Part shown: positions 14,969-17,124 of the stretch, in pieces | Position numbering within the stretch: the stretch's first letter is position 1 | Layout of the letters: the number at the start of each line of letters is the position of its first letter | Assembly (NCBI GenBank): GCA_023920165.1 | Contig: CP089277.1 | Span: 3,968,001-4,032,000, forward strand | Reading direction: 5' to 3' | Length of the DNA: 64,000 bases | Source of the DNA: Curvularia clavata | Taxonomy: Eukaryota | Notes under the pieces: model-generated | Database searches by the model: none | Seen by the model: only the letters and a program-made list of their open reading frames with translations | Told to the model about the DNA's origin: nothing | Made by a program: the position numbers and the translations under genes

Positions 14969-15177
14969 TGTTAGACTGTTAGTGGCGTGAAGGTACAGCA
15001 CGAGATAGATGAGAGAGAACTATGCTTTAACAGCCATGTATTCACGAGACGAATCGCTATCGAGCACCTCTAGCGATCGTGGAGGCTTTATAGCCTTAGG
15101 TAAGCCCTAGCTGACTAACTAGCGTGAAGAAGGAGGGAATTGGACCAACATGTCCCAATTTGGACCAGGTCCTGACA
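14969..15177 (-). repeat. 3' LTR of the gypsy element
   Basis: Identical to 22091-22299; on the minus strand it is preceded by the purine tract AAGAAGGGAGGTAT (15178-15191). Confidence 0.97.
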
Positions 15178-15770
15178 ATACCTCCCTTCTTAGGGTGCAG
15201 CTGTCCCAGCTGCGCAACTTATCATGCTTGCCGCCCAGTTTGAGCGATTACTGGGTGATGCCGCCGTGTGGGTTGGAGGGTGTATTTTACTTGCTCACCG
15301 CCCCAGGGCTATGACGTCATAATAGCGGAGTTTTGCGCTGCTGCCTAGCCGACTGCCCCACTTTGGGCCAACCCGGCCCATCAGGGTACTCCTGGGCAGC
15401 GCCAAGAGTCACGTGACGCGCTAATTTAGTGCGGATCCAGGGATACAATAGCCAGTTTTTGACTAAGCCCAGTACACCCCACAGTCCACCAACCCCACTT
15501 TGGTAAGTAGACTCCCATTTTGTGGGTCTTCTCAGTTTGGGCCCGACACCTTCCACCCACGGTCTGTTTGCAACAGTTTGGCCCAATTTGGGCCAGTTTG
15601 CAGTCGACCTTGGTTTTGTTGCCTTTTTCTGAGGTTCTTCCCCTGGACTTGGAGTTTTCTGCTGACTTTTCTTTTTAGGCTGTTTCCTCCCATACGATCC
15701 ATTTCGCGACAGATTCGACCGATTCGTCCCAAACACCCCCAAATTGGGGCCTTCAAGACCCACTTGAACC

Positions 15771-16836
15771 ATGACGAACGCACTTGGATCCGTCAACCGC
15801 AGTACGGTGTCAAACCTGTTCGTACGCAAGGGCCAGAGGTCTTACTACGCTTGTGTGTGCTGTCTGAACGCCTTCAGGGATAATGAGCCCGTTACTTTTG
15901 GCAGAGCGGGTTGCGTTATGTTGGACATCGACAATCCTGAGGTAGCTGAGGCTTGGTCTGGCTACAAGGTTGAACCGGAGTCTGGCGGTATGCCTAGGCA
16001 GGTGATGAAGTGTCTTCGCTGCTCTTACATCAACCGTGTCTGTTTTGCGGTAAGTTGCCCTGTTTTGCTCTGATTTGGTCCAATTTGGAGCTAAATGAGT
16101 GGTTAGGTGCCTCCTCCCGACAAGTTCTCCCCCGACTGGGTGAGACTTGGCCAGCTCATTGGGAAGGTTGAGGATGCCTTCCATGCCATTGACAAAGATA
16201 TCCCCGAGGGTGCCAATGAGGCTGAAGTTCGTGCTGAGCGCAGGGAAATGTACGAGGTGGCCGTTACTAGGCTTAGTATGTTCAGCAAGCCTATTGTTGA
16301 GTCACTCAAGAAGTAAGTGATCCAATTTTCCTAAATCTGGCCCAAATTGGACTAATTTGTGTAGGTTTGAGCCTCATGCTACTCATCTGTCTCTTTCCTC
16401 TGGTGCCATCGAGGAGGAAGATGATCCCCGCTCTGGTGTGAAGACTTCTGCCCTTGGCCGCTCCAAGAAGGATGAAGAGGTCAAGAGGAAGGCTCATGAG
16501 ATCGAGGTGGAAACTTTGGTCGAGGCAAGGGTCAAGAAGTCCAAGTATGGCTCTGGTGGGCGCAAGAAGGAGGTTTGTGATCCTTTTCCCCCCTATTTAC
16601 GCCAAATTGCCCCAATTTGGACTAACTTGGTTCTTTAGGTCAAGGTTGCCGAGGATGTCACTGATGAGCTTCAGAAGCGCATCAATGACATTGATGAAGA
16701 GATTTTGCAAAAAATGTCTGAGAAGGAGGGGGCCAAGGGTCAAGCCAAGAGGAAGATCACCAATGACATCAAGAACTTGGAAAAAGCCAAGGCAAGGCTT
16801 AACAAGGAGTACGAGGCCGCAGTTGCCGGTGATTAA
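15771..16836 (+). CDS. Antisense, spliced accessory gene inside the retrotransposon (296 aa; exons 15771-16049, 16107-16312, 16365-16572, 16639-16836); Cys-rich N-terminus, coiled-coil C-terminus
   Basis: Three phase-compatible introns of 57, 52 and 66 nt (GTAAGT..TAG, GTAAGT..ACTAAT..TAG, GTTTGT..ACTAAC..TAG) give one uninterrupted ORF from ATG to TAA. Confidence 0.88.
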
Positions 16837-17124
16837 GGGTGGTTGGGTCTAGTTTTGTCCGTTTTGGCCCAAATTGGGTCAGTATGGGCTATGGTGGTTT
16901 TCTTCCCTTTCATATGAGATACCCAGGGCATTAGGATGGAGGTGATAATTGAAATTCTCTTTTCTTTACTTTTCCATTCCTTGGTTTTTGTTGTGCAATG
17001 TCAGTTCAACATGGACCAATTTGGGCCAGGTTGCCCTAATCAGCTTATGCCGTTAAACACCTATAAAACCCTTTGGGGAAAAAAGTAGGTGAAGGTACAT
17101 GTGCTAATTTGGCTCCTATTGGCC

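Follow-up and report, generated by a model that had tools for sequence, protein, structure and literature searches.

The 64-kb window analyzed here (the whole stretch of 64,000 nucleotides from contig CP089277.1 of Curvularia clavata, to which all coordinates refer) contains an intact retrotransposon that carries a dense series of the 9-mer CCAAWTTGG and encodes an accessory protein in antisense orientation. This raises the question whether these sites form a target array for the accessory protein, as was proposed in a preliminary description of the locus by analogy with the VANC proteins of Arabidopsis, or whether they belong to a pattern of a different kind.

The retrotransposon is a Ty3/gypsy chromovirus of 7331 bp on the minus strand (14969..22299), flanked by a 5-bp target duplication (CTCAG at 14964-14968 and 22300-22304). 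Its LTRs are 209 bp long and 100% identical to each other; in element orientation, the 3' LTR is located at 14969..15177 and the 5' LTR at 22091..22299, both on the minus strand. The gag ORF (20826..22058, minus strand, 410 aa) comprises a zinc knuckle (Pfam). The pol ORF (17125..20778, minus strand, 1217 aa) comprises the Pfam domains RVT_1, RNase H, integrase and chromodomain, and its product is 100% identical to an NCBI protein named from Curvularia clavata. The window also contains an intact Fot1/pogo-type DNA transposon (12399..14266, minus strand), which is bounded by perfect inverted repeats of 68 nt and encodes a transposase of 562 aa at 12530-14218 (DDE_1, Pfam). Its insertion truncated a RIP-mutated partial copy of the chromovirus (11176..12398, minus strand), of which the 3' LTR and ~740 bp are left. 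A second retroelement at 1-5000, suspected from AT skew, was rejected and turned out to be a host coiled-coil gene.

The accessory gene lies between pol and the 3' LTR (15771..16836, plus strand) and encodes a protein of 296 aa. Its four exons (15771-16049, 16107-16312, 16365-16572 and 16639-16836) form a frame that is open after splicing, and they are separated by GT..AG introns of 57, 52 and 66 nt. Contigs recovered from four of 24 sequencing runs (15 of 16 pieces at least 99% identical) are unspliced only, with no joints across the three introns, and are uninformative on transcription or splicing.

The protein consists of an N-terminal domain with 7 Cys and a charged, coiled-coil-like C-terminal half. 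A search with the exon-1 domain among 1.84 billion representatives gave 7 matches at E ≤ 0.001, of which six relatives were used (P0004, a repetitive protein, was dropped), including an Alternaria gaisen protein of 309 aa. The alignment displays an invariant CxxC...GC...CxRC...C pattern that is compatible with zinc binding. Gal4-type Zn2Cys6 clusters are spaced CX2CX6CX5-12CX2CX6-8C; this class was rejected for the domain, with an observed spacing of CX2C-X16-C-X32-CX2C-X6-C and Zn_clus matching none of the 7 members even at E ≤ 10. Pfam assigned no family to any accessory exon; exon 4 has a weak coiled-coil-type match below the cut-off (Seryl_tRNA_N, E = 0.0018). No recognizable DNA-binding family or fold was found for the Cys-rich domain with Pfam, an AF2 model or PDB comparisons. 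The AF2 model of the exon-1 domain, based on an alignment of 7 rows, is of low confidence (pLDDT 63, pTM 0.50); Foldseek of this model against the PDB returned nothing at E ≤ 0.001, the exon-1 profile against PDB sequences reached a best E of 0.64, and ESM Atlas features of the Alternaria homologue were ≤ 0.76, below the level of a lead.

The exact 9-mer occurs 10 times in the window compared to 0.52 expected, and none of 100 shuffles reaches 10, which bears out both the positions and the far-above-chance count given in the preliminary description. All ten sites are located within the chromovirus, with none in the other ~53 kb of the window. The two spellings, CCAATTTGG and CCAAATTGG, are mutual reverse complements and thus represent a single 9-mer, which occurs seven times as the former and three times as the latter, has dyad symmetry around one base and is flanked by GGN..NCC. 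More loosely defined CC-W(4-6)-GG words have the CCAAWTTGG core in 9 of 15 cases in the chromovirus, and no such words are found in Fot/pogo. In its exact form, the 9-mer is private to the family of this retrotransposon.

Eight of the sites lie between 15155 and 17024. CCAATTTGG is found in the 3' LTR (15155..15163), at 15583..15591 upstream of the accessory ATG, in intron 1 (16080..16088), in intron 3 (16612..16620) and between the accessory gene and the pol stop (17016..17024). CCAAATTGG is found 32 bp upstream of the accessory ATG (15739..15747), in intron 2 (16342..16350) and 33 bp past the accessory stop codon (16869..16877). Each intron hence holds one exact site, immediately preceding a branch-point-like CTAAA, CTAAT or CTAAC in introns 1, 2 and 3, respectively. 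The remaining two sites, both CCAATTTGG, are located within the gag coding sequence (21293..21301) and in the 5' LTR copy (22277..22285). None of the seven sites between the 3' LTR and pol lies in an accessory exon, although exons account for 891 of these 1947 bases (P = 0.014 under random placement), so the reported avoidance of accessory exons holds. TRF detected tandem 10-bp units of ATTTGGCCCT (x3.9) at 17107..17145, overlapping the pol end, and period-10 arrays at 15577..15600 (unit TTTGGCCCAA, x2.4), which includes the site at 15583, and at 21082-21105 in gag. The run noted earlier at 17104-17146 is real, as are the degenerate copies.

A periodicity of ~10 bp extends far beyond the exact sites. 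We measured it as the normalized power of the GC indicator near 10 bp, which has a null mean of 1. In pol, the power is 43.6 at 9.99 bp, compared to 31.5 for period 3, and is matched by 0/300 synonymous and 0/300 codon-order shuffles. It is distributed unevenly over the third, first and second codon positions (28.6, 15.2 and 6.3, respectively), and the local phase in 23 windows of 300 bp has a circular standard deviation of 1.09 bp over 3.6 kb. The lattice is weaker in gag (9.6 at 10.04 bp), reaches 15.5 near 10 bp in the accessory region and is also present in the Fot/pogo ORF (17.1 at 9.98 bp); the observed values of gag and Fot/pogo were each reached by 0/300 synonymous shuffles. Among 13 host ORFs, the maximum power near 10 bp is 7.3, and synonymous shuffles of two host controls reach the observed power in 298/300 and 78/300 cases. 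The latter control, a host LRR gene, has a power of 7.3-7.6 at 10.26 bp, which we take to be the seventh harmonic of a 72-nt repeat. Since synonymous shuffling abolishes the lattice of the TE coding sequences, it is dual-coded and does not stem from protein sequence or codon usage. A power of ≥ 9 is found in 14 of 15 TE-internal 1-kb windows and in none of 104 non-TE windows, where the maximum is 6.7.

The exact sites are in register with this lattice. When the A/T centre was predicted from the flanks of each site, with ±12 bp masked, all ten sites (nine of them independent) were located within 1.8 bp of it (Rayleigh R = 0.80, p ~0.003), the 3' LTR site at an offset of -0.1 bp. The word order GGCC > GCCA > CCAA > AATT > TTTG > TTGG > TGGC is common to pol, gag and Fot. 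Phase-locking is seen for AATT but not for TTAA, and the dinucleotide phases in pol and Fot follow the classical pattern of AA/TT/AT versus GC. Autocorrelation alternates between positive values at multiples of 10 and negative values halfway between them (5, 15 and so on), up to a lag of 2000. The amplitude is modest, with about ±0.1 in GC fraction. A crude first-order wedge calculation predicts a static curvature that is no greater in the transposons than in the host, with 25.5 versus 24.6 degrees per 31 bp and 36.5 versus 35.0 degrees per 63 bp. The lattice amplitude has no nucleosome-sized modulation, its peaks near 256 and 310 bp being weak (< 4x mean). An origin of the lattice in CpG deamination was rejected, as the dinucleotide observed/expected ratios resemble those of the host (CpG 0.76-0.82 versus 0.82-0.85).

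Both lattice and motif sites are lost from the RIP-mutated copy at 11176-12398. At three positions homologous to motif sites, this copy reads CCTAATTTAGAC, CCCAATTTAGA and TCTAAATTAGAA, and all differences are C>T or G>A, in agreement with the earlier observation that the motif had been lost there.

Relatives were sought outside the window. Many relatives of pol with 55-79% identity are found on metagenome or Logan contigs of 5-8 kb; viral contig scans gave none. A narrow alignment identified one metagenomic locus, L001, as a relative of the retrotransposon. It has the accessory gene (exon 1, 46% identity) and five sites with at most one mismatch to CCAAWTTGG, versus 0.65 expected, in non-coding DNA that has otherwise diverged from the window element. 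The lattice power of its element part is 11.1, reached by 0/500 dinucleotide shuffles, compared to 124/500 for its non-TE flank. More distant chromoviruses have the accessory gene in 0/35 loci and only two exact CCAAWTTGG in their 198 kb, and none of 25 pol loci exceeds a lattice power of 7.1.

On the basis of the 64-kb window and 2.2 kb of DNA of one close relative, we are highly confident that the lattice is real, in register with the sites, restricted to TEs within the window, independent of protein and codon usage, and common to Fot/pogo and L001. For its role, we tentatively favor, at somewhat under an even chance, an action on chromatin as a PATC- or L1-like helical-phase code. We read the CCAAWTTGG sites as the fully formed units of a lattice with a unit of approximately GGCCAAWTTG and a period of 9.98-10.0 bp, written over the entire retrotransposon. 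In DNA free of coding constraint (LTR, promoter/UTRs and the three introns), the units reach the exact 9-mer and are locally multiplied into 10-bp tandem repeats, while gag-pol carries the same lattice in a fainter form, mostly at synonymous codon positions. A/T minor grooves and GGCC would face opposite sides of the helix once per turn, and this arrangement may set how the DNA is rotated, or how readily it bends, when it lies on a protein surface, either histones or a DNA-coating factor. The lattice would thereby shape the chromatin of the element, most likely keeping active copies from stable silencing. Since a copy of the same family in the window has been RIPped, any such protection is not absolute. 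The modest amplitude of the lattice, its lack of nucleosome-sized modulation and, tentatively, the crude curvature estimate also count against this role.

A mechanical code has no obvious need for nine exact bases, and the private 9-mer suits sequence-specific recognition better. The original proposal is still a contender: a dimer of the 296-aa protein would bind the phased CCAAWTTGG sites, VANC-like, and counter silencing or regulate the element, and the lattice in coding DNA and in Fot/pogo would represent weak or hitch-hiking sites of the same factor. We consider this possible but doubtful. It is in line with the high specificity, dyad symmetry and GGN..NCC flanks of the family-private 9-mer, with the placement of sites in three introns, promoter, UTRs and LTR but in no accessory exon, and with the co-occurrence of gene and sites in L001 as opposed to their near-absence from the distant chromoviruses. 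The Cys pattern would allow zinc binding, yet no DNA-binding family or fold was detected and the model is of low confidence. VANC targets are likewise described as tandem repeats in introns and upstream regions (PMC5735166). Against the proposal, the lattice continues across the 3.6 kb of pol, a place in which no motifs of the VANC type would be expected. What stands of the protein-plus-cis-array reading is that the sites are confined to the element, excluded from accessory exons and found again in L001; what does not stand is an isolated array, as the sites are part of a lattice of ~10.0 bp. Nor is the lattice peculiar to the carrier of the accessory gene, since it runs, in the same word order, both through gag-pol coding DNA and through Fot/pogo, a DNA transposon without the gene and without the 9-mer. 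Co-evolving pairs would predict different motifs in relatives with divergent accessory proteins; L001 keeps the same consensus although the putative binding domain is only 46% identical, which, with n = 1, is weak evidence against the proposal.

A second alternative, which we consider improbable, is that the pattern is a functionless by-product: slippage would multiply 10-bp units, and a TE-specific mutational bias, for example a nucleosome-phased one, would write the weak lattice. Period-10 tandem arrays do exist, the signal peaks where selection on the protein is weakest, and the formation of PATCs has been partly ascribed to mutational bias (bioRxiv 10.64898/2026.08.08.743475). However, the exact sites are dispersed at 147-428 bp with unique exons in between, so they are not recent tandem copies, and they are kept in kind in L001 despite the divergence of its non-coding DNA. 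The lattice is moreover found in the youngest copies (with identical LTRs and TIRs) and lost from the mutated one, the dinucleotide ratios, including CpG, differ little from those of the host, and local mutation would not readily produce a phase that stays coherent over 3.6 kb.

The helical-phase code and protein binding could also operate together. Unrelated active transposons in a RIP-proficient fungus may have converged on a phase-coherent 10.0-bp (GGCCAAWTTG)n code, running through both coding and non-coding DNA, against heterochromatin or the premeiotic homology search, and the exact sites of the chromovirus would nucleate the spreading of its own Cys6/coiled-coil protein along the lattice. 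Such an anti-silencing system would be partly mechanical and partly protein-based, and other transposons could hitch-hike on it. We regard this combination as a long shot.

It is very unlikely that the sites are ordinary binding sites of host transcription factors for an antisense promoter or the LTR, for instance CCAAT boxes of the Hap complex. CCAAT is present on one strand of every exact site, and the two sites that precede the accessory ATG by 32 and 188 bp adjoin CRE-like and CACGTG palindromes. Against this, most sites are situated in introns, the 3' UTR, gag and the LTR end instead of a promoter, and the pentamer is not conserved as the core of the unit: degenerate units in the window (CCACTTTGG, CCAGTTTGG) and in L001 (CCGATTTGG, CCAAATCGG) keep CCR...TGG and often lose CCAAT. 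The 10-bp register and the lattice in coding regions would also be left unexplained.

Least probable of all is a role at the RNA level, as palindromes for genomic-RNA dimerization or packaging or as splicing signals of the antisense transcript: the sites are self-complementary and precede a branch-point-like sequence in 3/3 introns, but 5/8 sites in 15155-17024 are not intronic, the same lattice is present in a DNA transposon without an RNA genome, the pattern has strand symmetry and keeps to the helical repeat of DNA, and the recovered contigs, themselves uninformative on transcription and splicing, are neither spliced nor transcript-specific.

If the helical-phase lattice is functional, it would constitute a second, overlapping code in fungal transposons that constrains synonymous sites over kilobases, and its sequence would suffice to tell intact mobile elements apart from host genes, providing annotation pipelines with a new signal for active elements. 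It would also show that a phenomenon recently suggested for human L1 and for relics of nematode Helitrons reaches into fungi, and into LTR as well as DNA transposons, and offer a small, genetically tractable test system for helical-phase protection from heterochromatin or RIP. The motif array thus calls for nucleosome or chromatin mapping and recoding alongside protein-binding tests. Full-text literature searches turned up no account of this kind of periodicity for fungal transposons.

Several known systems resemble the locus in part. In 1986, Satchwell, Drew and Travers reportedly found that nucleosomal AA/TT/AT recur every ~10 bp, out of phase with GC, and Hagerman is said to have found in the same year that AnTn tracts are curved and TnAn tracts are not. 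The dinucleotide phases in pol and Fot and the phase-locking of AATT but not TTAA agree with these rules. The period differs (9.98-10.0 bp here versus 10.2-10.5 bp), as does the reach of the phase, which extends over kilobases here versus one nucleosome.

An additional antisense gene, brtn, has been described in the Boty-like Ty3/gypsy element of Botrytis cinerea (Zhao et al. 2011, Virology 417:248, as mentioned in PMC8365987). As far as it is described there, it resembles the accessory gene as an extra antisense gene in a fungal Ty3/gypsy element. For Boty itself, we know of no report of a motif array or 10-bp lattice.

VANC21 and its element VANDAL21 of Arabidopsis form another parallel. The precedent was rendered correctly in the preliminary description: as described in PMC5735166, a TE-encoded accessory protein is paired with a 9-base motif that is concentrated in the non-coding DNA and introns of its own element, often in tandem, and is rare elsewhere. 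According to the same source, VANC motifs all point the same way and do not occur in coding sequence, whereas the sites found here have dyad symmetry, keep a 10-bp phase and merge into a lattice in coding DNA. VANDAL21 is a Mutator-like DNA transposon, while the present element is an LTR retrotransposon whose accessory protein is not known to be homologous to VANC and only putatively binds the motif.

The parallel on which our favored reading draws is a 10-bp periodicity described as dual-coded in the ORF2 of active human L1 and in the Helitron-derived PATCs of C. elegans, and associated there with an escape from silencing (bioRxiv 10.64898/2026.08.08.743475). In the terms of that preprint, long-range periodicity near the helical repeat is shared with the lattice; PATCs are likewise located in introns and non-coding DNA, and L1 ORF2 is likewise a dual-coded retrotransposon ORF that loses the signal on synonymous recoding. 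Both patterns are also prominent in young, active copies and are built partly from transposon minisatellites. Unlike these, the lattice is known from sequence alone, and a crude wedge calculation predicts no extra static curvature for it. It repeats a decamer that mixes A/T with G/C, GGCCAAWTTG, and has a private exact 9-mer, instead of the A/T clusters described for PATCs, and its carriers are an LTR chromovirus and a Fot/pogo DNA transposon in a fungus of the Dothideomycetes.

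The 9-mer CCAAWTTGG occurs ten times in the 64-kb window against 0.52 expected, a count that none of 100 dinucleotide-preserving shuffles reached. Its two spellings are a single 9-mer in two orientations, since they are reverse complements of each other, and the symmetry continues into the flanks, to about GGNCCAAWTTGGNCC. All ten exact sites are located inside one Ty3/gypsy element on the minus strand (14969-22299), which, as judged from its sequence, is an intact chromovirus: the LTRs (14969-15177 and 22091-22299, 209 bp each) are 100% identical direct repeats, a 5-bp target duplication (CTCAG) flanks the element, gag (20826-22058, minus strand) carries a zinc knuckle, and pol (17125-20778, minus strand) comprises protease, RT, RNase H, integrase and a chromodomain. 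Pol is 100% identical to a Curvularia clavata protein in NCBI, and relatives with 55-79% identity are encoded on many 5-8 kb contigs. Contigs from four sequencing runs over the element are unspliced and silent on expression.

An accessory gene of four exons (15771-16049, 16107-16312, 16365-16572 and 16639-16836) was predicted on the strand opposite to gag-pol, in the interval from pol to the 3' LTR. None of the seven sites between LTR and pol falls in these exons (P = 0.014), and each of the three introns holds one site, immediately 5' of a branch-point-like CTAAA, CTAAT or CTAAC. In a partial, RIPped copy of the chromovirus (11176-12398), all three homologous sites were lost, every change being C>T or G>A. 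The preliminary description had reported an array far above chance that avoids the accessory exons and is lost from the RIPped copy; the coordinates agree exactly at all ten sites, and its observation is therefore right in each detail checked. At 11772-12054, the RIPped copy contains approximately 276 bp extra compared with the intact copy (point 15567), which appear far less RIP-mutated than the sequence around them.

The insertion target of the chromovirus is an AT-rich repeat (22299-22598 and 22962-23261; also 14500-14968), seen as two 300-bp direct copies, 96% identical and 663 bp apart, with the uninterrupted target sequence at about 22940-22985. A putative primer-binding site (22073-22090; TTCGAATCGCTC in element orientation) adjoins the 5' LTR. 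It lacks the usual TGG start; its similarity to the complement of a tRNA T-arm region would point to unusual priming. For the segment 14969-17400, runs X1-X8 contain a fraction of 0.62-0.95 of the sampled words; these runs carry at least four different organism labels, plus several metagenomes, so the chromovirus is either common among related fungi or has spread through them recently.

When split into tens, the sequence around the sites consists of successive degenerate versions of a single decamer, such as CAGTTTGGCC, CAATTTGGGC and CAGTTTGCAG at 15574-15603 or the four units at 17107-17145. Period-10 arrays were detected with TRF at 15577-15600, 16055-16077 and 17107-17145, and at 21082-21105 in gag. 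Fourier analysis of the G+C indicator (normalised power near 10 bp, null mean of 1) shows that this periodicity, hereafter the lattice, is not local to the site neighbourhoods: the power is 15.5 in the accessory region (period 9.89 bp; 0/500 dinucleotide shuffles as high), 9.6 in gag (10.04 bp) and 43.6 in pol (9.99 bp). In pol it exceeds the period-3 power (31.5), and G+C by position modulo 10 ranges from 0.41 to 0.60. The pol lattice is not due to protein sequence or codon usage, as the power was reached by none of 300 synonymous-codon shuffles (mean 9.8, maximum 19.1) and none of 300 codon-order shuffles; third codon positions contribute most strongly (28.6; the other two 15.2 and 6.3). Across 3.6 kb, local phase measured in 23 windows (300 bp each) varies with a circular sd of 1.09 bp; autocorrelation remains above zero at lags of 10, 20 and so on and below zero at 5, 15 and so on, up to lags of 2000. 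All ten exact sites keep to the register of the lattice: with ±12 bp masked around each site, the A/T centre predicted from the flanks lies at most 1.8 bp from the centre of every exact site (mean offset 0.5 bp; Rayleigh R = 0.80, n = 9, p about 0.003).

An unrelated element shares the lattice. An intact Fot1/pogo-type DNA transposon (Fot, 12399-14266), with 68-nt perfect TIRs and a 562-aa DDE_1 transposase, was inserted into the RIPped chromovirus copy; no RIP was seen in Fot itself, and it therefore arrived after the RIP episode. Its lattice has a power of 17.1 at 9.98 bp (0/300 synonymous shuffles as high) and is also strongest at third codon positions. The lattice positions of tetranucleotides agree among pol, gag and the Fot ORF, namely GGCC at about 0, GCCA at 1.5, CCAA at 3.1-3.4, AATT at 5-6, TTTG at 6-7, TTGG at about 8 and TGGC at 8.7, which combine into the decamer GGCCAAWTTG. 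Phase-locking was seen for AATT but not for TTAA; the dinucleotide phases follow the classical AA/TT/AT versus GC alternation.

Inside the two transposons, 14 of 15 1-kb windows have a power of at least 9, against 0 of 104 outside them (maximum 6.7). No lattice was found in the 13 host ORFs of the window (maximum 7.3), and the signal is gone from the RIPped copy. A host LRR gene (5924-6832) peaks weakly at 10.26 bp, with a power of 7.3 that 78/300 synonymous shuffles also attained; this is probably a harmonic of the leucine-rich repeat length and not the transposon lattice. The pol genes of 25 distant chromoviruses (contaminants of prokaryotic assemblies, 26-48% identity) have no lattice (maximum 7.1), so the lattice does not belong to the gene family in general.

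The sole close relative with DNA examined is a metagenomic contig (L001, 2.2 kb of DNA), in which exon 1 is 46% identical and the LTR, upstream region, ATG and introns are laid out as in the chromovirus. Its element part contains runs of 10-bp units, five sites within one mismatch (0.65 expected) and a lattice of power 11.1 (0/500 shuffles as high), whereas its non-TE flank has none (124/500). The 13 nt at the start of intron 1, GTAAGTTGCCCTG (window 16050-16062; L001 1851-1863), are identical in both, in contrast to the exon 1 protein identity of only 46%.

The exact 9-mer is private to the chromovirus. TTGGNCC/GGNCCAA occurs 7.2 times per kb in its non-coding DNA, 2.0 in gag-pol, 1.1 in Fot and 0.5-0.7 in the rest of the window, and nine of 15 CC-W(4-6)-GG words of the chromovirus have an AAWTT core, while Fot has none of these words. 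Two exact sites were counted in 35 distant chromovirus loci (198 kb), in which no homologue of the accessory domain was found. Within one 64-kb window and 2.2 kb of relative, there are thus two layers, a helical-phase lattice common to two unrelated active transposons and, atop it, a sharply defined family-specific unit.

The predicted accessory product is an open 296 aa (GT..AG introns of 57, 52 and 66 nt). A search with its exon 1 domain, in which C28, C31, G47-C48, C81, R83, C84 and C91 are invariant, gave seven matches at E ≤ 0.001 among 1.84 billion representatives; leaving out a repetitive protein (P0004), six relatives remain, mostly first-exon fragments. One of them, a hypothetical protein of 309 aa from Alternaria gaisen, is full-length and is organised like the accessory product, with a charged helical tail after the Cys domain. 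No Pfam family was found for the protein, none of seven family members matches Zn_clus even at E ≤ 10, and neither Foldseek (low-confidence AlphaFold model, pLDDT 63) nor a PDB profile gave a fold for the domain. An extra antisense gene, brtn, is likewise reported for the fungal Ty3/gypsy element Boty (mentioned in PMC8365987). Upstream of the accessory ATG, a CRE-type perfect palindrome, ATGACGTCAT (15311-15320), and a CACGTG-core palindrome, GTCACGTGAC (15408-15417), are candidate promoter elements; L001 has AATGACGTAATTA and ATCATGTGAC (about 1031-1043 and 1209-1218) at similar relative positions.

The preliminary description had proposed a VANC-like system, in which a dimeric sequence-specific binder, with the accessory protein as candidate, would use the 9-mers. 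This has real support: the 9-mer is dyad-symmetric, private to the family and placed at phased positions, the neighbouring gene encodes a Cys-rich protein whose tail is a coiled coil, and VANC targets are also tandem repeats in introns and upstream regions, like the chromovirus sites (PMC5735166). However, the lattice also occurs in coding DNA and in Fot, which lacks the accessory gene, and the protein has no recognisable DNA-binding fold. A divergent accessory protein would be expected to come with a different motif, but the motif is unchanged in L001 despite a domain identity of only 46% (n = 1). A neutral origin through slippage and mutational bias is weaker: it would account for the tandem arrays, but not for exact sites that are dispersed and kept in L001, for phase coherence over kilobases or for a dinucleotide composition like that of the host. 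Also weaker are explanations by a CCAAT box or by RNA or splicing, which fail on the site distribution and on a lattice in a DNA transposon.

The lattice is real, in register with the sites, independent of coding, restricted to transposons in the window and recurrent in the relative. With each helical turn, it would bring AnTn-type A/T minor grooves to one face of the helix and GGCC to the other. Such placement is the textbook basis of anisotropic bending and rotational positioning on histones (Satchwell et al. 1986; Hagerman 1986). We favour a PATC/L1-like role at the chromatin level, in which the CCAAWTTGG sites would be lattice units fully realised where the DNA is unconstrained. Against it, a first-order wedge calculation (unverified parameters) predicted no extra static curvature of the transposons, the lattice has no nucleosome-sized modulation, mechanics alone does not explain the exactness of nine bases, and one copy of the family was RIPped. 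This chromatin-level reading is favoured because the periodicity of PATCs and L1 ORF2 is the nearest described phenomenon. A 10-bp periodicity is described for C. elegans PATCs, derived from Helitron minisatellites, and for active human L1 ORF2, where it fades in old copies and is lost on synonymous recoding, as in pol (0/300 shuffles); the authors connect it with curvature, a changed organisation of nucleosomes and protection against silencing (bioRxiv 10.64898/2026.08.08.743475). A full-text literature search yielded no account of such periodicity for fungal transposons, and the fungal lattice is a variant of a phenomenon described only very recently, in animals.
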